This document shows, piece by piece, positions 1 to 7,385 of a stretch of DNA of 10,133 nucleotides (its first letter is position 1; each line of letters begins with the position of its first letter). The notes beneath the pieces were generated by a model. That model saw nothing but the letters and a program-made list of their open reading frames with translations, was not told the DNA's origin and ran no database searches. Source of the stretch: a virus (lineage: Duplodnaviria; Heunggongvirae; Uroviricota; Caudoviricetes); IMG/VR virus record IMGVR_UViG_2695420701_000015; one strand, given 5' to 3'. A program made the translations under genes and the position numbers.

Positions 1-35
1 TGAGACTAACTTTTGAGACTTCTAAGGGGAACATT

Positions 36-587
36 ATGGCGATACTTGGATATTGCAGGGTGAGTACAGATGACCAATCCATCACTAACCAGCAAATGCA
101 AATTGAAGAGGCAGGGTACAACATTGCTAAATGGTTCACTGATGAAGCTGTCAGTGGTTCTGTCAAAGCTTCTTTAAGAAACGGTTTCAGCAGACTATTA
201 GCTTATGCACGAGAAGGTGACACCGTAGTTGTGGTAGCTGTAGACCGTCTTGGACGTGACACAATTGATGTGTTATCAACGGTTAAAGCGCTACAGGCTA
301 AAGGTGTGACAGTTATCAGCCTTAGAGAAGGGTTTGACTTATCAAGCGCTATGGGTGAAGCAATGTTAGGCATTATGTCAACGTTGGCACAGCTTGAAAG
401 AAGCTTGATAGCAGAGCGTAGAAAGGCTGGTATTGAACGTGCTAAAGCTGAAGGGGTACATATGGGAAGACCTGTAAAAGCTTCTTCAGAGGCTGTACAG
501 ATGCTTATTTCACAAGGTAAAACGAGGTTGCAGATTCAGGAAGAGCTAGGAATCTCTAGAGCAACTTATTACAGACTTGCTAAATAA
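36..587 (+). CDS. Small serine recombinase (resolvase/DNA-invertase family), 183 aa
   Basis: Complete ORF. N-terminus MAILGYCRVSTDDQ carries the catalytic-serine motif of small serine recombinases; VDRLGRD motif; C-terminal HTH-like [13 protein letters not shown]-like AAGGGGA about 6 nt upstream of the ATG. Confidence 0.9.
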   Translation: MAILGYCRVSTDDQSITNQQMQIEEAGYNIAKWFTDEAVSGSVKASLRNGFSRLLAYAREGDTVVVVAVDRLGRDTIDVLSTVKALQAKGVTVISLREGFDLSSAMGEAMLGIMSTLAQLERSLIAERRKAGIERAKAEGVHMGRPVKASSEAVQMLISQGKTRLQIQEELGISRATYYRLAK

Positions 588-776
588 GTTACTGAATAGT
601 TACATGGATGTAGCTGATATTTGGCTTTTTTGCCAAGGGGGTCACATAGCTGGTGTGACGGGTACTAAACACGTATACATCATGAGGTAGATTCTACCGA
701 ATCAACTAGACAGATATTTTCGAAGATTCGGGGAAGATGAGATTCAAAGAGGGCTAGTCATTTTTTATAAAAAATT
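198..776 (+). repeat. Copy A of the recombinase-3'/downstream module (3' part of the gene plus about 190 bp downstream)
   Basis: Direct repeat of 777-1356. The first 80 bp downstream of the stop (588-667) are identical in all three copies and contain palindromes TTGGC-T6-GCCAA and GTCACA-N7-TGTGAC. Copy A has a distinct 44-bp patch (668-711). Confidence 0.85.
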
Positions 777-1164
777 AGCTTATGCACGAGAAGGTGACAC
801 CGTAGTTGTGGTAGCTGTAGACCGTCTTGGACGTGACACAATTGATGTGTTATCAACGGTTAAAGCGCTACAGGCTAAAGGTGTGACAGTTATCAGCCTT
901 AGAGAAGGGTTTGACTTATCAAGCGCTATGGGTGAAGCAATGTTAGGCATTATGTCAACGTTGGCACAGCTTGAAAGAAGCTTGATAGCAGAGCGTAGAA
1001 AGGCTGGTATTGAACGTGCTAAAGCTGAAGGGGTACATATGGGGAGGCCTGTAAAAGCTTCTTCAGAGGCTGTACAGACGCTTATTTCACAAGGTAAGAC
1101 GAGGTTGCAGATTCAGGAAGAGTTAGGAATCTCTAGAGCAACTTATTACAGACTTGCTAAATAA
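777..1164 (+). pseudogene. 5'-truncated second copy of the serine recombinase gene (C-terminal about 129 codons only)
   Basis: nt 777-1164 align to nt 200-587 with 5 substitutions (4 synonymous, 1 Met->Thr). The catalytic N-terminal domain is absent; ORF-track ORF 808-1164 starts at an internal Met. Confidence 0.8.
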
Positions 1165-1356
1165 GTTACTGAATAGTTACATGGATGTAGCTGATATTTG
1201 GCTTTTTTGCCAAGGGGGTCACATAGCTGGTGTGACGGGTACTTAGCAGCTACAGACATCTGTCAGATATTTTTGAAGATTCGGGGAAGATGAGATTCAA
1301 AGAGGGCTAGTCATTTTTTATAAAAATTTTCAGACTCTGAAAAGTTACTGTACAGA
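777..1356 (+). repeat. Copy B of the recombinase-3'/downstream module (tandem, head-to-tail with copy A)
   Basis: Junction at about 774-777, where ...TTTTATAAAAAATT joins AGCTTATGCACGAG (gene position about 200). Downstream part 1165-1356 matches 3491-3684 almost exactly. Confidence 0.85.
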
Positions 1357-1508
1357 ATATATACAGATATCTTTAAAGTATCTGTAAAAACTTTTAAGAT
1401 AAAAGATAGATATCCCAGAAAGGATATCCGTTTAGAAAACCTGTTAAGTATCTCTTAAAAGAGAGTAAACCTTGTCAAGAGTGATTGCAATAAAAATTTT
1501 TATTTCTT

Positions 1509-2171
1509 ATGTCAATTGAGCATATTTTAATCGGGAAGCATCATGGGGGTTCTGATTACTGGAGAACTCCATTTTTGTTATTTAAGAACTTACACCGTGA
1601 ATTTATTTTCAGTCTAGATGGTGCTGCAACTGAGCATGACACGCTGTTACCACGATTCACCGATGATATAAGCCGTCAATCATGGGTTAGTGAAAAGGTC
1701 TTCTGTAACCCGCCGTACAGCGATATTCCGTCGTTCCTCTTAAAAGCGTCTGAAGCGGATTTAGTAGCTTTCCTGATACCGCATAGAGCCAACACCAGCT
1801 ACTGGCTTAGGCACATTTACAGCAATAACCACTGTCATGAAATCCGTATTCTTCATCGTGCAGTTAAATACCTTCCACCAGCAGGGCATAACAGGCTTAC
1901 TATTAGGTCACCGTTTCCAAGTGCAGTCGTTGTTTTTAAAAAAGAACCACGTAAGCATGAAATTACACAGATGGTTTGCTGTGCTGATACATTGCTACCG
2001 TTAACCATCATTAACCGTGGTGGACTAAGAGGAAGACCCACCATTTACCCACCTGAGACGCTCGACAGCTTCATAAAACTATACAGGCAAGGAAAACCCA
2101 TTAAGTACATTGCAGATGCTCTCAGAATGCCTCTGAGCACGTCATACAGGATTGCTCAAAGGTTGAGCTAA
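1509..2171 (+). CDS. DNA N6-adenine methyltransferase, phage Dam-like family, with C-terminal HTH-like extension (220 aa)
   Basis: Motifs DYWRTP, LDGAA and FCNPPYSD (NPPY catalytic motif of amino-methyltransferases) in the order typical of the phage Dam family. C-terminal about 45 aa (KPIKYIADALRMPLSTSYRIAQRL) resembles a resolvase-type HTH. No adjacent restriction endonuclease gene is visible. Confidence 0.75.
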   Translation: MSIEHILIGKHHGGSDYWRTPFLLFKNLHREFIFSLDGAATEHDTLLPRFTDDISRQSWVSEKVFCNPPYSDIPSFLLKASEADLVAFLIPHRANTSYWLRHIYSNNHCHEIRILHRAVKYLPPAGHNRLTIRSPFPSAVVVFKKEPRKHEITQMVCCADTLLPLTIINRGGLRGRPTIYPPETLDSFIKLYRQGKPIKYIADALRMPLSTSYRIAQRLS

Positions 2172-2275
2172 AATTCTCATAAATATGGTCATTTACAAGA
2201 CAGGTGATTCAGATGTTAAGAAGTATCCCCGTGAACAATAAATGACCAATCAGTAATCATTCTGTGAAATAATTG

Positions 2276-2304
2276 TTGCAATTTATAATCACATCTGTTA
2301 TAGT
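2276..2304 (+). promoter_or_regulatory. Candidate sigma70 promoter (TTGCAA-17 bp-TATAGT)
   Basis: Hexamers and 17-bp spacing read directly. It lies about 230 bp upstream of the 2535 ORF, so the assignment is tentative. Confidence 0.3.
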
Positions 2305-2534
2305 TTCTATATGGGCTGATAAAAAAGTTCATGTCTTGAAGTGGTAACACTTGGGGAGGTGTCAGATGGTTGGCGTATATTAACCTCTCATTCAGGGTAT
2401 ACCTCAGCGTTTTAATCATCGTACTGTTTCAGGCATGGACTTCTTTATCAGTCCATCAATCCCCCAGATATTTTAATCACACAGGCTAATCGGTTTTATC
2501 CGGTTGGCCTTTTCACGTATGAGGTAATTTATGA

Positions 2535-2924
2535 ATGTCTAAATATAACCCAAATCAGTTTTATAAATTTGATGTGCGAATCTCTCAACTTTCAGAAGAA
2601 ATTAACGCAGCAGCAAGATTGATTTATATGGTCATGGTCCATAGCTGTGACTTCTATGAAGAGAAATACAAATCATATTCACCAAGTATTGACCATCTCG
2701 CTTATATGGCTGGTGTATCAAAGAGAACAGCAATCAGAGCCATTGAGACACTTGAGAAACACGGTTTAATTCAGGTGCAAAAGAATCAGGGGCGTCAAAG
2801 CACTTATCGTGTATTCACACTGGATGATAAGCCGGAATTACTTGTAAGACCTACATCACAGGAAGTTGCAGCCTCAGTAAGACAAAATGACACCACTACC
2901 AGTGACAAAATGTCATGGGGGTAG
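2535..2924 (+). CDS. Winged-helix DNA-binding protein, possible replication-initiator or regulator N-terminal part (129 aa ORF)
   Basis: Segment LAYMAGVSKRTAIRAIETLEKHGLIQV is HTH/winged-helix-like. GAGG lies 10 nt upstream of the ATG. The ORF stops at a TAG (2922-2924) between two 15-bp repeats, and the coding signal continues in another frame. Confidence 0.5.
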   Translation: MSKYNPNQFYKFDVRISQLSEEINAAARLIYMVMVHSCDFYEEKYKSYSPSIDHLAYMAGVSKRTAIRAIETLEKHGLIQVQKNQGRQSTYRVFTLDDKPELLVRPTSQEVAASVRQNDTTTSDKMSWG

Positions 2925-3138
2925 TGACAAAATGTCACCCGTGTTAGAGTTAGATAAGTTATTAGATAAAACATTAGATAATAATATTACAGATAAGAAT
3001 AAAGAGACTGGACTTAATGATGATATTAAAGAAGATGACTTTCTTTCTTTGGATGAATTAAATGATTTTCTCTCTATGAATGAATCTGACCTTGAAGTAA
3101 GCTCTAAAAAGGGTGATGCTGCCAACTTACTGATTTAG
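2887..3138 (+). pseudogene. Acidic C-terminal continuation of the rep-like gene in a shifted frame, 3'-truncated by IS1
   Basis: ORF 2887-3138 re-reads the second 15-bp repeat as SDKMS, the same peptide ORF 2535-2924 reads from the first repeat. Its last 9 codons (GDAANLLI-stop) are encoded by the IS1 left inverted repeat, so the native 3' end is missing. Confidence 0.35.
2901..2937 (+). repeat. Two exact 15-bp direct repeats AGTGACAAAATGTCA, 22-bp period, each containing the palindrome TGACA-N3-TGTCA
   Basis: Read directly: copies at 2901-2915 and 2923-2937. The 7-bp spacers differ (TGGGGGT versus CCCGTGT). Confidence 0.9.
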
Positions 3139-3450
3139 TGTATGATGGTGTTTTTGAGGTGCTCCAGTGGCTTCTGTTTCTATCAGCTGTCCCTCCTGTT
3201 CAGCTACTGACGGGGTGGTGCGTAACGGCAAAAGCACTGCCGGACATCAGCGCTATCTCTGCTCTCACTGCCGTAAAACATGGCAACTGCACGCATTATG
3301 GGCGTTGGCCTCAACACGATTTTACGTCACTTAAAAAACTCAGGCCGCAGTCGGTAACCTCGCGCATACAGCCGGGCAGTGACGTCATCGTCTGCGCGGA
3401 AATGGACGAACAGTGGGGCTATGTCGGGGCTAAATCGCGCCAGCGCTGGC
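3112..3450. mobile_element. IS1 remnant: intact left terminal inverted repeat, insA with internal deletion, start of insB; right part absent
   Basis: GGTGATGCTGCCAACTTACTGAT at 3112-3134 matches the IS1 left inverted repeat as I recall it. The following sequence encodes the InsA N-terminus ([41 protein letters not shown]). About 85 bp appear to be missing after 3291 relative to canonical IS1 (from memory). IS1-like sequence stops at 3450. The segment is visibly more GC-rich than its flanks. Confidence 0.8.
3167..3334 (+). pseudogene. insA: insA remnant (GTG start), frameshifted by the internal deletion
   Basis: Translation from GTG at 3167 gives the InsA N-terminus and then diverges after ...KTWQL into [14 protein letters not shown]-stop. 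The InsA C-terminal peptide [21 protein letters not shown] is encoded in a different frame. Confidence 0.7.
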
Positions 3451-3451
3451 A

Positions 3452-3684
3452 TAGGAATCTCTAGAGCAACTTATTACAGACTTGCTAAATAAGTTACTGA
3501 ATAGTTACATGGATGTAGCTGATATTTGGCTTTTTTGCCAAGGGGGTCACATAGCTGGTGTGACGGGTACTTAGCAGCTACAGACATCTGTCAGATATTT
3601 TTGAAGATTCGGGGAAGATGAGATTCAAAGAGGGCTAGTCATTTTTTATAAAAATTTTCAGATTCTGAAAAGTTACTGTACAGA
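3452..3684 (+). repeat. Copy C of the module: last about 13 codons of the recombinase gene plus downstream region
   Basis: TAGGAATCTCTAGAGCAACTTATTACAGACTTGCTAAATAA and the following about 190 bp match 549-587 and 1165-1356. It begins abruptly inside IS1-derived sequence. Confidence 0.85.
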
Positions 3685-4630
3685 TTTTGCACAATCCTAC
3701 CAAACCTCATAGTTGATTCGATTAGAAGCTAATCTCATAGAAAGCTCTGTAGCGAGTTTTAACCCCATTTTTAGGGGTAACCTATAGGGATGTACTAACC
3801 ACCTTAAAATAAAGGGGTAAAATCGCTTAGAATGCGTTACAGAGCGTCTGAGAAGCCATATTCACAGATTTTACTAAAACCTCAGACTTCTAAGTAGTCT
3901 TTTAACAGGAGGGGTTCCCCTATGGTCACATATCCCCTCTCTTTCCACTAAGTAAGCCTTAGCAGCACCTAAGCAACAATTGACTAACAGATTCGGTAGA
4001 GTCTATCTCATAGGTCAACTTCATAAACTCAGAGCTAAGTTACCTTGAAAGATTCTACCAAGAACTACACAGGTGTTATTTAGTCTGACTGTGAAGGGAT
4101 ATTTAACGGGAGAAGAGATACGATATAACCCGAAGGGAGAGTATCATCTTAACAATTATCTTAAGAATAAAACTGAAAAACTCTTAACAGATAACCACCT
4201 AGAAAGAAGGGAACGATAAGACCAGAGGTAGTGACCTGTTAAACAGGCTGTTTCAAAGTCTCTTAAAAGTCTGTTAAGTAAGGTCATGTGAACAATCTTA
4301 CCATTTTGTCAATGCTTTTGTCTTTGACCTAAATCAATAAAATGTATCGTTTGATATGCTTTTAAACAAAATAGCTAAAAAATCTTTTTTTAGAGGGGCG
4401 CTTCGCTTGGGGTCACTATGAATGATTTTTCTCTCGCTAAGAGAGCGCTTACAGAGGTCTTTCAAATCTCAATAGCCAGCCGAGGAACACAGGAAACCGA
4501 GGGAAGAAAAACTATTGTGATTACCTTGAACAAGGTCTGTAAAGGTCGTTTAAGAGGTCGGTTAAGAAAGGAGCTTCCCTCTCTGGGGTTATCGCTCTTC
4601 TCCCGATTAGTGGGGCGGTTAAGGGGGCTT

Positions 4631-4812
4631 GAAGTTATCTGTGAAGGTACTGGACAGTCTTATATATTGGGTGATTACAACTCGTTGAAAAATAAGCATT
4701 TTTAGAAGTTACTGTTAAGGTTGCAGAGTTGTCTGTGAAGAGACTTGTCAGTTCTCTATATATGGCTAATTACAACTTATTGAAAAATAAGAACTTTTAG
4801 AAATTACTGTCA
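4631..4812. repeat. Two imperfect tandem direct repeats, about 94-bp period
   Basis: TCTGTGAAG...TTGAAAAATAAG(C/A)A(T/C)TTTTAGAA(G/A)TTACTGT occurs twice, starting at 4638 and 4732, roughly 80 percent identical by eye. Confidence 0.8.
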
Positions 4813-4945
4813 GAGAGGTGAATGCTTGATAGACACAGCTTTCCGGTTCTGTCAAGCTATTTTTTAATAGATAGCACAAAATGCTAAAGACACCCCTGTA
4901 CCATAGACTTCTATCTGTCATCTCGTGCAGGGGTTTTGAAGGAGT

Positions 4946-5122
4946 TTAACGGGGGTCTGTGTGGTCGTTATCCTTAAGGTCAAGCGTCCATGTACGACCG
5001 AACAGTTTAAAGACAACAAGCACTCTGACGAGGACGTAGCGAAGTAGCAGGCCTGCAATCAGCCCAATACCTCCACCAGTCCATACATCAGGTGACCCCA
5101 GCTCAGGAGGGAGATTTACCAT
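4946..5122 (-). CDS. Candidate small membrane protein, 58 aa (MVNLPPELGSPDVWTGGGIGLIAGLLLRYVLVRVLVVFKLFGRTWTLDLKDNDHTDPR)
   Basis: Internal Met of ORF-track ORF 4946-5278 (-). AAGGA RBS 6 nt upstream on the minus strand. One predicted transmembrane helix with a charged C-terminus. The palindromic element 5137-5234 lies immediately upstream. Confidence 0.35.
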   Translation of the reverse strand: MVNLPPELGSPDVWTGGGIGLIAGLLLRYVLVRVLVVFKLFGRTWTLDLKDNDHTDPR

Positions 5123-5136
5123 TAGTTTTCCTTGTA

Positions 5137-5234
5137 AGACGCTCTCAATCGCATTCTGACACAAAAAGTACCTGACCTTATGAGTTGACCTGAAGAGGTC
5201 GTTTAACTCGTTACAGGGCGATTGAAGAGGTCTG
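5137..5234. repeat. Palindromic repeated element, copy 1 (terminal inverted repeats AGACGCTCTCAATCGC / GCGATTGAAGAGGTCTG)
   Basis: Both terminal arms are shared with copy 2 at 6765-6886; the central part differs. It sits immediately upstream of the RBS of the minus-strand small ORF. Confidence 0.8.
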
Positions 5235-5336
5235 TGTGCAATGCAAAATATGCGACCAAATACATAGCCACGCCTCATATTTTACTCTCCCCATAAACCC
5301 ATTATACCACAGATGTTACGAAAATGTTAAAAATAC

Positions 5337-5365
5337 TTGACATTAGTCTTTGAAAATGCTAATAT
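5337..5365 (+). promoter_or_regulatory. Candidate sigma70 promoter TTGACA-17 bp-TAATAT
   Basis: Consensus -35 and near-consensus -10 with 17-bp spacing, about 50 nt upstream of the 5417 ATG. The -10 is followed by TGTATATAT, as at the 7320 promoter. Confidence 0.55.
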
Positions 5366-5416
5366 TGTATATATAGGTTAACAGAATAATAACATCTTCT
5401 GAGAGTCAGAACATGA

Positions 5417-5974
5417 ATGCAGTATTCAGAATTTAGAGCGATGCTTCAGGCATCAAGAGAACGCAACAAGCACAACTCCTACGCTTACACAAACAACCCC
5501 ACCAGCTACGAAGTCCCAACCTTTAGCAAATCCGAACGTAAGAACATTGAAGCGGTCATTCGTAGCATTACGCCACGAGACAGATTTATGCCAGTACGCA
5601 AAACAACAAAGAATACTATTAAAAATTATCTGGCTAACTTTGACAGTTACGAGCAGTTACCAAGCAAGCTTGATGATGTTTTTATTGGGTTCTGTAGAAG
5701 TGAAGGCCACCCGAAATACAACAAAAAACTATTTTATCTGCTAAAGAATCTTGACGAAATTAACGCATCCACCGTGACAAATCATCTTCAGCGACAGGCA
5801 ACCAGACTTAGTTACGAATTACCAAGCGATAAATATTGCGCTTTGCTTGCTGTGATGTGCGCGAAATTAATTGGCATTGTTGAACATCATATTGCCGTTG
5901 GGAATATTGAGCCAATGGAAAACGAGCAACCAGATTTCGAGTTTGACCCCTATTTAGTTACAGAGGATTTTTAA
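5417..5974 (+). CDS. Hypothetical protein, 185 aa, acidic C-terminus
   Basis: Long ORF downstream of the candidate promoter; first gene of a run of tightly abutting ORFs. No family recognised. Confidence 0.7.
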   Translation: MQYSEFRAMLQASRERNKHNSYAYTNNPTSYEVPTFSKSERKNIEAVIRSITPRDRFMPVRKTTKNTIKNYLANFDSYEQLPSKLDDVFIGFCRSEGHPKYNKKLFYLLKNLDEINASTVTNHLQRQATRLSYELPSDKYCALLAVMCAKLIGIVEHHIAVGNIEPMENEQPDFEFDPYLVTEDF

Positions 5975-6253
5975 ATGAATAAACACACATTAACCAGAGT
6001 TACAAAGACAGCCTTTGATGAACTGAACCGAATCAAAAACATTACAGGTCTGCCACACTCAGCAGTGATGAAGCTTGCAATTAACCGTGATATTAACGAA
6101 CAGGATTTGCTTAATAGTCGCTTAGAGGCTGCAAGACACCATATCAGGATTAAGCAAGATGACCTTGATAGTCTGAAATCCTTAAATGCTTTTGGACTGG
6201 ATTTAGCAAGGTTACTAAGTATCAAAATTCACAAACTGTCTCAGGAGGTCTGA
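5975..6253 (+). CDS. Hypothetical small protein, 92 aa
   Basis: ATG immediately follows the upstream stop (TAAATG); GAGGA lies upstream. No family recognised. Confidence 0.65.
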   Translation: MNKHTLTRVTKTAFDELNRIKNITGLPHSAVMKLAINRDINEQDLLNSRLEAARHHIRIKQDDLDSLKSLNAFGLDLARLLSIKIHKLSQEV

Positions 6254-6255
6254 TT

Positions 6256-6528
6256 ATGAAGCAATGGCGAGATGATATTAAACGGTTCTTTGCAACTTAC
6301 TTCATGATTAATTATGAGACAGGAATGCTTGAATGGATTGATGGTGGAGAGGTTAAGACAAGAGATGATGCTTACGGTAATCCAATGATTCGTTATGGCA
6401 CTCGTGATTATTATCTGAAGTATGTCATCTGGTTTTTGCATCATGAAGTTCAGGCAACTAAAAAGATTATCTTCAGGGATGGTAATAAAAGAAATTGCCA
6501 CCCAAACAATTTACTCCTGGAGATTTAA
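6256..6528 (+). CDS. Small protein with degenerate HNH_3-like motif, 90 aa
   Basis: AGGAGG RBS 7 nt upstream. C-terminal half (YLKYVIWFLHH...IIFRDGNKRNCHPNNLLL) resembles the HNH_3/NUMOD4-type pattern (HRxVW...IDHIDGNxxNNxxxNLRL), but the DH of the catalytic motif is replaced by FR. Confidence 0.6.
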   Translation: MKQWRDDIKRFFATYFMINYETGMLEWIDGGEVKTRDDAYGNPMIRYGTRDYYLKYVIWFLHHEVQATKKIIFRDGNKRNCHPNNLLLEI

Positions 6529-6728
6529 TGTTATGTATTAAATTCGAATATTTGACAGATAAAATGATTAAGCATGTATCAGACCTGCTCATCAAAGAAG
6601 GTGGTTTCGGTGATGCTTGCAATCCAAAAGATATCTTCATTCATGCCACCAGCCCAAACGCAACACTAAAGACAGCAGTTACAGCGGAATGGTTTGAACG
6701 AAATAAAGCGGAATTAGGTTATTGGTAG
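6528..6728 (+). CDS. Hypothetical small protein, 66 aa (ATG start; the ORF track extends to 6495 via a TTG)
   Basis: ATG overlaps the upstream stop (TAATG), indicating translational coupling. Confidence 0.55.
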   Translation: MLCIKFEYLTDKMIKHVSDLLIKEGGFGDACNPKDIFIHATSPNATLKTAVTAEWFERNKAELGYW

Positions 6729-6764
6729 TCCGAGACTTTAAGAGAAATTAGAAAAACAGCTTAT

Positions 6765-6886
6765 CAGACGCTCTCAATCGCATTCTAACGCAAAAAACTA
6801 TCTTATTTTAGGGTGGGTAATACCACTGTACAGGCTACCCCTGAAAAAGACTGTTTAGCTCGTTACAGAGCGATTGAGGAGGTCTG
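6765..6886. repeat. Palindromic repeated element, copy 2 (CAGACGCTCTCAATCGC ... GCGATTGAGGAGGTCTG)
   Basis: Same terminal arms as copy 1 and an internal palindromic core. It ends about 20 nt before the ATG of the 6907 gene on the plus strand. Confidence 0.8.
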
Positions 6887-6906
6887 GTAAAAAGGAGATT
6901 TTAAAA

Positions 6907-7230
6907 ATGAACGAATATGAATTACAGATTTTCATTGATAGCGACACTGCTATGATGGTGCAGGCTTTCGCTGATTCCGGTGTATCAATTGACCTTGATA
7001 AATTACTAAAGCTAATGGCTGAAAACTCAGAAGAAATTGAAGACTTTATTCAGGAAATTGAAACTGGTGAACCGCGTTTTATGTTTCCTGTTACCGACTC
7101 AAACATGAAGCGTCTTATTATCGAAGAAACGAACAAATACAGCGTTAGCCCTGAAAAATATCTCAAGGCGGCTATAGCAATTTTGTATAGCGATAATATT
7201 CTGGTGACGGATTCGAAGGTGGTGCATTAA
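6907..7230 (+). CDS. Hypothetical acidic small protein, 107 aa (ATG at 6907; the ORF track start at 6874 is a TTG inside the repeat element)
   Basis: AAGGAG RBS 9 nt upstream of ATG 6907. Asp/Glu-rich. Confidence 0.7.
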   Translation: MNEYELQIFIDSDTAMMVQAFADSGVSIDLDKLLKLMAENSEEIEDFIQEIETGEPRFMFPVTDSNMKRLIIEETNKYSVSPEKYLKAAIAILYSDNILVTDSKVVH

Positions 7231-7295
7231 TGGAATTGGTGATTATCTGTTTTGTATTGATTGGTATGATTGCAGGTGCATCTATTAAAGTATAA
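7230..7295 (+). CDS. Candidate 21-aa hydrophobic peptide MELVIICFVLIGMIAGASIKV
   Basis: ATG overlaps the stop of the 6907 gene (TAATG). Almost entirely hydrophobic, roughly one transmembrane span. Too short for the ORF track. Confidence 0.35.
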   Translation: MELVIICFVLIGMIAGASIKV

Positions 7296-7319
7296 ATGTT
7301 ACCAATCTGTTAAAAGCTG

Positions 7320-7348
7320 TTGACAAACAACCTTGAGCATGACATAAT
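7320..7348 (+). promoter_or_regulatory. Candidate sigma70 promoter TTGACA-17 bp-CATAAT
   Basis: Consensus -35 with 17-bp spacer, followed by TGTATATATGG as at the 5337 promoter. Confidence 0.5.
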
Positions 7349-7357
7349 TGTATATAT

Positions 7358-7385
7358 GGGGAGAGCAATTCTCTCTTATTTTTTC
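7358..7385 (+). terminator. Intrinsic-terminator-like hairpin (GGGAGAG-CAATT-CTCTC followed by TTATTTTTTC)
   Basis: Short stem followed by a T-run, 63 nt after the stop of the 7230-7295 ORF. It could terminate the 5417-7295 operon or attenuate transcripts from the 7320 promoter. Confidence 0.5.

Follow-up and report, generated by a model that had tools for sequence, protein, structure and literature searches.

An island-private palindromic repeat family with a possible role as an RNA hairpin in phage-like islands of Escherichia and related genera

Repeated extragenic palindromes of the REP/BIME and ERIC (IRU) kinds are found in every E. coli genome, at tens to hundreds of copies per genome, and the Correia/NEMIS-type MITEs of Neisseria carry terminal inverted repeats that form RNase III-cleaved hairpins in mRNA. 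Cer-type sites have a core made of a XerC arm, a spacer of 6-8 bp and a XerD arm, and an accessory region of ~180 bp with an ARG box ~100 bp from the core. The element described here, about 100-127 bp long with a variable centre, occurs in the window (the whole 10,133-nucleotide stretch of DNA analysed, from a Caudoviricetes virus record) and has features of each. Like REP/BIME and ERIC, it is an imperfect palindrome in the extragenic DNA of operons and leaders, with transcription deduced from a promoter scan, a predicted fold in mRNA and a presence that varies between relatives. Unlike them, it is found in only ~8% of E. coli genomes, at three fixed positions of one island, and it does not reach their copy number, being limited to island carriers; no similarity to the REP and ERIC consensus sequences is evident. 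It shares terminal inverted arms, insertion near gene starts and a proposed transcript hairpin with the Correia/NEMIS elements, but has neither target-site duplication nor high copy number, and no related IS was found in the phage, plasmid and genome sequences searched. Among the readings considered, we tentatively prefer a REP/ERIC-like repeated extragenic palindrome of 105-125 bp, private to the island, that would act as a leader or intercistronic RNA hairpin.

Three copies in one chromosomal island

A sequence-only reading of this DNA had described two copies of a palindromic element with shared terminal arms and different centres. Alignment confirmed both copies at their places, the shared arms and the non-aligning centres, but the count of two was too low, because a third full copy on the minus strand had been overlooked. 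A family HMM built without copy 1 finds all three copies in the window: copy 3 at 3856-3729 on the minus strand (E 1e-41), copy 1 at 5131-5234 (E 3.5e-6) and copy 2 at 6759-6888 (E 6e-31). Copy 3 aligns gap-free with copy 2 and with the Citrobacter copy (alignment A4). The features of the region are as follows.

3744-3856, minus strand: copy 3 (c3), type C; GCTTCTCAGACGCTCTGTAACGCATTCTAAGCG ... ACCCCTAAAAATGGGGT ... CTCGCTACAGAGC
4946-5122, minus strand: ORF for a 58-aa single-pass membrane protein, with copy 1 in its leader; PGAP-annotated in islands L011 and L014
5131-5167, plus strand: copy 1 left arm, repeat D9; includes 33 nt common to cer-type accessory sequences
5136-5234, plus strand: copy 1 (c1), short form of type A, between the minus-strand promoter-like site and the small membrane ORF
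5201-5234, plus strand: copy 1 right arm, repeat D10, with GAGGTCTG at its end
5301-5330, minus strand: strong promoter-like site, TTAACA-18-TATAAT with TG (11/12 matches), reading leftward through copy 1
5337-5365, plus strand: strong promoter-like site, TTGACA-17-TAATAT, reading rightward through the operon with copy 2
6245-6252, plus strand: GAGGTCTG at the end of the 92-aa gene and the ribosome-binding site of the HNH gene; left edge of the high-identity HNH cassette
6256-6728, plus strand: HNH endonuclease gene (6256-6528, HNH_3 match) and 66-aa gene (6528-6728)
6760-6796, plus strand: copy 2 left arm, repeat D9
6765-6886, plus strand: copy 2 (c2), type A, intercistronic, with the 66-aa gene on one side and the acidic 107-aa gene on the other
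6853-6886, plus strand: copy 2 right arm (GTTTAGCTCGTTACAGAGCGATTGAGGAGGTCTG), repeat D10, with the phage 5'-leader block and a Shine-Dalgarno-like GGAGGT
6907-7230, plus strand: acidic 107-aa gene, downstream of copy 2

Copies 1 and 2 are 89% identical across the 37 nt of their left arms and 91% identical across the 34 nt of their right arms. That the arms are inverted repeats of each other was also borne out, with the left arm equal to the reverse complement of the right arm at 24/34 positions. Each arm appears to be made of tandem 10-nt units that are TTNNAGAGCG-like and resemble ribosome-binding-site regions, and TTAGAATGCG, ATTGAGAGCG and TCTGATAAGC can be read directly as such units. Enrichment of the 10-mer in the window is weak (13 matches versus 7.7 expected, equalled in 5/200 shuffles). 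The sequence GAGGTCTG occurs only three times in the window (at 5227, 6245 and 6879, versus 0.17 expected), and the one at 6245 repeats, in direct orientation, the sequence at the right-hand ends of copies 1 and 2.

The start of copy 1 is 3 nt away from the AAGGA that precedes the 58-aa ORF, and copy 2 ends 20 nt ahead of the ATG at 6907, both as the sequence-only reading had placed them. The two copies have the same DNA orientation, so their adjoining genes would see opposite strands of the element. A longer, 110-aa frame that runs through copy 1 is broken in island L007 on direct reading. Comparison of the neighbouring proteins with Pfam, PHROGs, NCBIfam and PDB gave nothing useful, and the predicted structure of the acidic 107-aa protein (mean pLDDT 42.7) was too poor for a fold search.

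The family is confined to one phage-like chromosomal island of ~11 kb, always at the same three positions, which relatives never exceeded in searches with the family HMM. The island is hosted by E. coli, Shigella (S. sonnei), Salmonella, Citrobacter and E. albertii, with O157:H7 among the carriers, and is neighboured by yciI, yecE or ymdF. Matches were present in 449 of 5426 E. coli genomes, a number about equal to that of the island carriers, which make up ~8% of complete E. coli genomes, with a median of one place per matching E. coli genome for the copy-2 query. Citrobacter islands have a single copy, at the copy-2 position, and those of Escherichia and Salmonella have up to three. BLAST of positions 4900-7300 against phages and 72,556 plasmids gave no match, and the element alone gave a best E of 1 or worse against 50,697 phage records. 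Among 185,579 species genomes, the left arm was found only in E. albertii, in cer sites of small plasmids and as chance matches; the plasmid places examined for element matches were likewise cer sites. Our literature search found no paper describing the island.

Copy 1 is absent with clean edges from islands L011, L012 and L072-L077. The empty site, seen in Citrobacter, L076/77 and L011/12, has CCTT joined directly to CTGTGTGC, and the filled site reads CCTT-GTAAGAC...GAGGT-CTGTGTGC, with an ambiguous overlap of at most 1-2 nt and no target duplication. Many islands are without copy 2, copy 1 or both, and island L011 carries zero copies yet keeps the 92-aa gene; the element is thus dispensable. 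An antisense RNA made from copy 3 onto the left arms was rejected, since several islands with copies 1 and 2 are without copy 3. An invertible segment between the inverted copies 3 and 1, beside a DNA invertase gene, was rejected as well, because no orientation polymorphism was seen at the 8 loci in which both copies are present.

One of the candidates proposed for the element was a MITE-like mobile element. Its inverted terminal arms, the presence/absence polymorphism of copy 1 and the increase in copy number from one to three agree with that proposal; the lack of a target-site duplication and of copies outside the island family does not. Nor was a parent IS or transposase with the same ends found in phage, plasmid, E. 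coli, viral and genome-contig searches. A dispersed MITE is therefore only partly supported.

Predicted folding and relation to small genes

Copies 1 and 2 fold better than shuffled controls (200 shuffles). As RNA, copy 2 reaches -50.5 kcal/mol on the plus strand (z -5.8) and -46.5 kcal/mol on the minus strand (z -5.7), with 0/200 shuffles as good in either case, and copy 1 reaches -35.2 (z -2.1) and -33.2 kcal/mol (z -2.7), with 5 and 3 of 200 shuffles as good. With ssDNA parameters, copy 2 had z of -5.0 and -4.9, and copy 1 had -2.9 and -2.6. Folding of copy 3 as RNA gave a z of -4.0 for the plus strand and -2.5 for the minus strand, and this greater stability of all three copies on both strands speaks for an RNA hairpin. 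The arms pair with each other in the RNA folds of copies 1 and 2, and the internal arm mismatches (GC versus CT on direct reading) are the same in both copies, so that identical stem mismatches have been retained, which points the same way.

Comparison between islands gives a mixed picture of the pairing. At the copy-2 position, the element of Citrobacter (type C) and that of E. coli (type A) align without gaps over ~115 nt. In the left arm, type C has a 4-nt block GTAA where type A has CAAT, and the right arms have the respective complements, TTAC and ATTG. Because the complement of the block is present in each right arm, arm pairing has been kept by a two-sided change, with the register shifted, which argues for the hairpin. 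Islands without copy 2 carry a different intergenic sequence that is hairpin-forming too (z -2.3 and -3.3), and this also favours it. Against it, the 43 predicted pairs of type A show zero compensatory changes, there being no covariation within type A because the sequence hardly varies, and several substitutions in type C break predicted pairs rather than compensate. Rfam models did not match the window at E up to 1; the elements alone gave miRNA models at chance level only, and the related loci gave nothing. An intrinsic terminator (GC-rich hairpin followed by a U run) was found at neither copy 1 nor copy 2, and the 3' side of the copy 3 minus strand has only UUUCUAU on direct reading, which is not terminator-like.

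The element had also been proposed as a structured 5' leader that controls translation. The positions of copies 1 and 2 fit this proposal and that of copy 3, which adjoins no gene start, does not, so a leader role is plausible but unproven. Copy 1 is part of a leader, with a strong promoter-like site on one side of it and the Shine-Dalgarno sequence of the 58-aa ORF on the other, and copy 2 lies inside an operon that has a strong promoter-like site of its own. Phages of the mEp021 group (mEpimmI) and rV5-like phages also have the right-arm block, GTTTAGCTCGTTA(C/G/T)AGAGCG, on the sense strand, 10-35 nt before start codons and, as in our element, just upstream of the ribosome-binding site, which again favours a role in RNA. 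In mEp021-group phages, the shared block makes up the 3' half of a hairpin, and in mEp021 a small hydrophobic ORF follows it, in the manner of copy 1. These phage leaders differ from the element in that only ~20 nt are in common, with each single BLAST match at E 1 or worse.

In the reading that we prefer, the oldest copy would be the one at the copy-2 position, between two cistrons of the rightward early operon, which is the sole copy in Citrobacter. Copy 1, in the leader of the small membrane-protein gene, and copy 3, inverted and in the non-coding left region, would be later additions. Once transcribed, a copy may form a long imperfect hairpin whose end lies immediately before the next ribosome-binding site. 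Such a hairpin could serve as a processing or stability boundary, either as a double-strand cleavage site of the RNase III type or as a barrier to 3' exonucleases, and could insulate the downstream start site from upstream sequence. The analysis shows the repeat family with its three positions, fold potential, conservation and insertion polymorphism; transcription, hairpin formation in vivo and an effect on processing or translation are what we infer. Several findings count against an RNA hairpin. Copies 1 and 2 lie in the same orientation beside opposite-facing genes, so that the centre would be represented by different strands in the two mRNAs; copy 3 is beside no gene start; and the element is dispensable, as island L011 shows. 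Furthermore, the sequence-level conservation of ~90 nt exceeds the need of a plain RNase III or stability hairpin, and is due in part to hitch-hiking with HNH genes.

A conserved cis element that stands beside two divergent candidate early promoters and inside an early operon offers a practical start for studies of regulation in this island. The family also illustrates how a palindromic repeat may originate, apparently from 10-mers of the kind found near ribosome-binding sites and a piece common to plasmid cer sites. The palindrome apparently multiplied within one mobile element and then reached the edges of homing-endonuclease cassettes. If it were only a passive hairpin, the element would count as a common REP-like repeat whose distribution is unusually narrow.

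Mosaic blocks, cer likeness and alternative readings

Copy 2 has a mean pairwise identity of 96.7% in 17 islands, and its neighbouring genes are ~75% identical. Part of this conservation comes from hitch-hiking with cassettes of HNH nuclease genes. Within 0.5 kb of copy 2 there are two different HNH genes, and comparison of the window, which is of the S. sonnei type, with a Salmonella island (L071) gave 96-100% identity over 6226-6886, which holds the HNH gene (HNH273), the 66-aa gene and copy 2 together as one high-identity mosaic block, versus 46-72% in the flanks. A block with the order 66-aa gene, HNH288 gene and copy 2 has 95-99% identity versus 72-82% in its flanks, and another block, 5086-5234, contains copy 1. 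In three comparisons, the right edge of the element is the end of the high-identity block. The occurrence of nuclease genes at boundaries of exchange has been described before (PMC10055350). The homing-endonuclease cassette boundaries of phages (PMC10055350) resemble our locus in that near-identity blocks stop at the element and HNH genes are near; they differ in that the element here is older than the HNH insertions, since Citrobacter has the element without an HNH gene.

These blocks bring up a possible but unlikely alternative, namely a selfish or structural repeat without a regulatory role, which spreads by duplication inside the island and marks the junctions for the exchange of cassettes, notably those with HNH genes. 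Conservation would then reflect recent spread and co-conversion instead of function. In its favour are the rise from one copy to three in both orientations with a clean insertion at copy 1 that left no target duplication, the three block ends at the element's right edge, the presence of GAGGTCTG at all three module ends and the nuclease genes already described at exchange boundaries (PMC10055350). On the other hand, the elements of Citrobacter and E. coli keep length, block order, arm complementarity and position despite sequence divergence. The arms are identical in variant B, though its apical part is replaced, and also where another gene stands upstream, and no mobilising enzyme could be assigned. 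A related and quite improbable proposal makes the palindrome itself the recombination joint of the island, a hairpin or cruciform site where breaks start gene conversion. The breaks might come from the neighbouring HNH nucleases or from host hairpin-processing nucleases. The element could then act as a built-in cassette boundary that shifts gene blocks among the Escherichia, Shigella and Salmonella islands, and new copies of it could arise at other sites with no transposase involved.

The left arm matches the accessory segment beside the XerC arm of ColE1-type cer at 30/33 positions (AACGCTCTCAATCGCTTTCTGACGCAAAAAAC), a segment which we take to hold the Pcer -35 region, and a cer HMM (nhmmer) matches at 5107-5167 (E 2e-6) and 6766-6798 (E 6e-5). 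This likeness suggests a double-stranded DNA site for a wrapping or bending protein, either a host factor of the kind that acts at cer (PepA, FIS, ArgR) or the 92-aa protein of the island, with three phased 10-bp units offered by each inverted arm. We regard such a site as doubtful. It would be consistent with the 10-nt units of the arms, as the cer segment has the same period on direct reading, and with the single DNA orientation that copies 1 and 2 keep whatever the gene direction, and an invariant host factor would account for invariant arms. However, the alignment to the cer HMM ends at 33 nt and nothing else of the 180-bp accessory region is present, the 10-mer enrichment is weak, and island L011 has the 92-aa gene with zero copies. 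The element, unlike cer, has neither a conserved Xer core nor an ARG box. A test for Xer cores found a XerD arm at 10/11 and a XerC arm at 7/11 with a 7-bp spacer in the flank of copy 1, and nothing similar at copies 2 and 3. A functional Xer site at copy 1 was rejected because the XerD-like ATTTACCATTA is the start of the ORF and is not ancestral, being absent in Citrobacter, whose ORF begins with ATGAACCTC. An ARG box after copy 1 was rejected too, as the ARG-box-like stretch varies between islands and is not conserved.

Readings that draw on phage biology fared worse. An antitermination (nut-like) site, where early transcripts would recruit Nus factors to RNA polymerase through a boxA-like sequence in the arm and a small hairpin whose loop is A-rich, is very unlikely. 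It takes support from GCTCTGTAAC, which both copy 3 and the copy 2 right arm contain (two matches to GCTCTNTAAC versus 0.06 expected) and which matches the rrn boxA core, GCUCUUUAAC, at 9/10 positions, and from the type C hairpin ACCCC-UAAAAAU-GGGGU. In addition, CCCTGAAAAAG in copy 2 and CCTGAAGA in copy 1 are identical to parts of lambda nutR and nutL boxB. The resemblance to the lambda nut region and to the N leader with its RNase III hairpin extends to the early operon of a temperate element, the boxA-like 10-mer, a small hairpin whose loop is purine-rich and a long hairpin ahead of a start codon. It fails in spacing and pairing state, and no N-like protein was found among the neighbouring small proteins. 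The boxA-like sequence is predicted to be base-paired and lies 45-65 nt from the hairpin, versus about 8 nt, the type C hairpin standing about 65 nt downstream; the boxB-like sequence of copy 2 forms no local hairpin, and the hairpin at that of copy 1 is weakened in most relatives (GACC opposite GGCC). No arginine-rich N-like motif was recognised, and the neighbouring small proteins have no family match. A related leader block does occur in the Nus-dependent mEp021-group phages, but the block shared with mEp021 is not among its three mapped nut sites (PMC11893012).

A packaging (cos/pac) site or island replication origin, kept invariant to fit the machinery of a helper phage, has even less to commend it and is highly improbable. 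Copy 2 directly follows an HNH gene in many islands, and a cos directly after an HNH gene is the arrangement of HK97-type phages. The neighbouring 92-aa protein has a very weak match to P27-type small terminases (E 0.027, far below cutoff). Against this reading, 0/50,697 phage records share the element, many islands do without copy 2, copy 1 or both, and an island may have three copies.

The last candidate, an Frpo/ssi-like promoter or priming hairpin in single-stranded DNA, we consider barely credible. The long imperfect hairpin has conserved mismatches and folds about equally well as ssDNA, which would suit it. The Frpo-type promoter proposed in the sequence-only reading did not stand, given a chromosomal island, no match among the 72,556 plasmids, loci that on reading proved to have no conjugation genes, and arms without any -35/-10 pair spaced 16-18 nt apart; we know of no single-stranded stage of this island. 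The TTGAGA-like and TAGAAT-like hexamers of the arms are, on direct reading, 4 nt apart and in the wrong order. Hybrid promoters built on outward-facing -35 hexamers of the arms were rejected, as there is no usable -10 at the right distance. The loop of copy 2 has a T7-promoter-like sequence, TAATACCACTGTACAGG, that is probably a chance match, because variant B does without it.

Copies of the element and the island that carries them

The sequence-only reading had described two copies of a palindromic element with common arms, copy 1 ending 3 nt from the ribosome-binding site of a 58-aa membrane ORF on the minus strand and copy 2 about 20 nt before the ATG of the acidic gene at 6907, and our analysis bore out both the copies and their distances to the respective ribosome-binding sites. 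A third full copy had been overlooked, and the segment at 3829-3855, which resembles a solo arm, is part of it. This copy represents a second sequence type, type C, which in Citrobacter islands is found at the copy-2 position, flanked by the 66-aa gene and the acidic gene. Type B, a variant whose apical part has been replaced, is present in three loci (L030, L033 and L044), and types A, B and C align gap-free over ~115 nt. In the DNA, copies 1 and 2 run in the same direction, as direct repeats, and copy 3 runs the opposite way, with no gene start adjoining it.

Element copies, and features of the left part of the window (1-3700), which is rearranged
36-587: invertase gene, full
808-1164: invertase gene, second, truncated copy
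547-788, 1124-1365 and 3452-3693: invertase 3' end plus 242 nt downstream, present three times
2535-2924: HTH_36 replication-initiator-like ORF, apparently cut short
~3108-3450: IS1 fragment
3744-3856 (-): copy 3, type C
5136-5234 (+): copy 1, type A
6765-6886 (+): copy 2, type A

A family HMM found copy 3 (-), copy 1 (+) and copy 2 (+) in full Escherichia/Shigella islands, copies 1 and 2 in Salmonella and copy 2 only in Citrobacter, with no further copies across ~600 kb of related loci; since it matches these sites only, the family has three fixed positions. As queries, copy 2 matched 449 E. coli genomes (340 over at least 80% of its length) and copy 1 matched 296 (189 over at least 80%). The plasmid matches examined were rejected as element copies, being cer-type Xer sites with part of the left arm. 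When one genome per species was searched (185,579 species), the left arm was found, besides chance matches, in E. albertii and small-plasmid cer sites only.

The window, a mosaic, represents part of a small chromosomal island and is neither a plasmid nor a known phage. Its 185-aa protein (5417-5974) is found, unchanged in sequence, on thousands of contigs, adjoining cls-kch-yciI, and entries for S. sonnei and E. coli match the acidic protein exactly. The region 4900-7300 had no match among 50,697 phage records and 72,556 plasmids; relatives were present in 452 of 5426 complete E. coli genomes, all chromosomal and mostly at 80-92% identity. The insertion site is yciI, yecE or ymdF, intact relatives of the island measure ~11-12 kb, and further carriers are Shigella, Salmonella, Citrobacter and E. 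albertii. Neither the window nor the related loci L007-L015 and L070-L077 showed capsid, terminase or lysis genes, and the island looks like a phage satellite or remnant, on which a literature search found no paper.

Gene order of the island
1: small resolvase/invertase; Dam methylase in many, not all, islands
2: non-coding stretch, then small membrane ORF and two divergent promoters
3: 185-aa and 92-aa protein genes
4: HNH genes (one or two) and 66-aa gene, then acidic gene of ~107 aa
5: 236-aa gene, tape-measure protein, baseplate protein (Dit-like), large serine recombinase

Insertion and exchange

Copy 1 is an insertion: in empty sites (Citrobacter islands, L076/77 and L011/12) CCTT is directly followed by CTGTGTGC, and the filled site reads CCTT-GTAAGAC...GAGGT-CTGTGTGC. 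The MITE-like origin proposed from the sequence finds partial support in this insertion polymorphism; against it, comparison of empty and filled sites showed no target duplication, and the element is confined to one island family. Copy 2 is probably the oldest, because Citrobacter has the copy-2 position only. Some E. coli islands have copy 2 replaced by unrelated intergenic sequence, likewise hairpin-forming, and one island (L011) is without any copy.

Mean identity of copy 2 among 17 islands is 96.7%, against 75% for the adjoining acidic gene and 77% for the upstream flank. In one island type, identity is 95-99% across the block formed by the 66-aa gene, HNH-288 and copy 2, and 72-82% beyond it; when the window is compared with a Salmonella island, the block of HNH-273, the 66-aa gene and copy 2 (6226-6886) reaches 96-100%, against 46-72% in the surrounding sequence. 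Both blocks stop at the right edge of the element, and the octamer GAGGTCTG has only 3 matches in the window (0.17 expected): one closes each of copies 1 and 2 on the right, and one marks the left edge of the HNH block. The two different HNH genes flank the 66-aa gene on opposite sides in different islands (window 6256-6728; L008 7345-7844), each within a near-identity block common to otherwise diverged islands, including S. sonnei-type versus Salmonella, a placement that corresponds to the behaviour of free-standing homing endonucleases. The conservation of copy 2 is due to hitch-hiking in part, not in everything: variant B keeps its arms unchanged although the gene upstream differs and the loop has been replaced, and the Citrobacter copy, with no HNH gene nearby, retains length, block order and arm complementarity.

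The family is real and previously unannotated, consisting of island-private palindromic repeats, and the element is of a known kind (repeated extragenic palindromes, MITE-like hairpins). Its three-site distribution is unusual and its ancestry mixed, and it is located at the edges of homing-endonuclease cassettes.

Sequence relatives of the arms

The left arm AGACGCTCTCAATCGCATTCTAACGCAAAAAAC agrees at 30/33 positions with the segment beside the XerC arm of ColE1-type cer sites, in a large cer family found in 1300 plasmids, and a cer HMM matched only those 33 nt on the island (E 2e-6 to 6e-5). Given the direction of Rcd transcription (PMC2831885) and TACAAT within the XerC arm, this segment would hold the Pcer -35 region. 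The flank of copy 1 resembles an XerD arm (ATTTACCATTA), which was treated as chance because it coincides with the beginning of the small ORF and Citrobacter lacks it. A cer subfamily (L017 150-330, L018 3250-3420, L041-L049) has an accessory-region inverted repeat, TTTCTGACGC ... GCGTCAGAA, with one paired change in L047 that keeps pairing (TTTCTGGCGC ... GCGCCAGAA). On an unrelated viral contig (L034 4974-8285), genes for a resolvase and an HTH_36 replication-like protein accompany 1.2 kb of non-coding sequence, which begins with the left-arm motif (TAAAACGCTCTCAATCGCATTCTGACGAG) folded into a hairpin of its own, with an extended -10 promoter upstream.

Two phage groups have the right-arm block GTTTAGCTCGTTA(C/G/T)AGAGCG shortly before ribosome-binding sites: in the mEp021 group it is the 3' half of a hairpin before an unannotated 33-aa hydrophobic ORF, and in rV5-like phages it stands directly before the start codon. 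These matches are weak singly and recurrent in context. The arms lend themselves to division into tandem 10-nt units like TTNNAGAGCG, the last Shine-Dalgarno-like, and enrichment of the unit is statistically weak. In phage mEp021 itself (L050, 1500-1640 and 1680-1790) the 33-aa ORF (MDGKHVFALAFAIAAAIAVNVALFGGLFLLVNP) lies between gp13 and gp12 behind a conserved hairpin whose stem variants in related phages keep pairing, and a second palindromic leader precedes gp12.

Folding and competing readings

Our results establish the repeat family, its positions, its folding potential and its evolution. On both strands, copy 2 gives a single long imperfect hairpin (RNA z -5.8/-5.7; ssDNA z -5.0/-4.9), and copy 1 is less striking (RNA z -2.1/-2.7; ssDNA z -2.9/-2.6). 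An Rfam search gave no matching family, and the sequence-only reading had likewise recognised none. Within type A there is no covariation because the sequence does not vary, and several type C changes break pairs. Between types, GTAA in the left arm becomes CAAT and the right arm has the complement (TTAC versus ATTG), so arm pairing is retained with the register shifted by one 10-mer; this is the one informative contrast for pairing.

A 110-aa reading frame through copy 1 is not kept in relatives, and therefore the 58-aa ORF is the real gene, with copy 1 in its leader. The two best promoter sites found by scanning the region stand back to back, at 5301-5330 (-) and 5337-5365 (+), which would place copy 1 in a leftward leader and copy 2 ~1.4 kb into a rightward operon. 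We tentatively favour a REP/ERIC-like repeat acting as an RNA hairpin at cistron boundaries, since the element sits inside predicted transcription units, the right block recurs in phage leaders, other hairpins replace the missing element and stem mismatches are conserved. We infer that it is transcribed, folds in vivo and affects expression; the hairpin would direct RNase III-type processing or protect mRNA, and the start site that follows would be insulated as well.

Less likely, in our view, is a selfish repeat or a recombination joint that lacks any regulatory role; it would account for how copy 1 was inserted, where the blocks end and some of the conservation. A double-stranded DNA site at which a protein wraps or bends DNA is unlikely; it would explain why the left arm is homologous to cer sites, why the arms have a 10-bp period and why copies 1 and 2 share one DNA orientation. 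For a nut-like site speak a small A-rich-loop hairpin in type C, a 9/10 match to the boxA core and short identities to lambda boxB; however, neither the spacing nor the pairing state is right and a search for an N-like protein gave none, making it quite improbable. A cos, pac or ori site is more improbable still, as there is no phage match and some islands have no element, and the Frpo-type single-strand promoter suggested earlier is scarcely tenable, failing on context and promoter geometry.

Other signals lie near the copies. A small hairpin with AUAUUUUG after it lies at 5252-5271 (-), in the interval from the leftward promoter to copy 1. In L007, a related island, it has a G to A change opposite U that turns a wobble pair into a Watson-Crick pair, which fits a minus-strand RNA hairpin, possibly an attenuator or short-RNA end. 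From copy 3 to the small ORF, 1.2 kb are non-coding and include, at 4537-4560 and 4633-4810, iteron-like repeats (GGTCGTTTAAGAGGTCGGTTAAGA; GGTCGTTTAA is also present in the copy 1 centre) and two tandem units of ~95 nt each, which could be an origin or RNA gene. Upstream of the 236-aa gene and tail genes, 7320-7385 (+) contains a near-consensus promoter, TTGACA-17-CATAAT with TG, and within ~10 nt of it a terminator-like hairpin and T run, an arrangement that recalls the lambda late promoter and terminator (Q-type antiterminator dependent).
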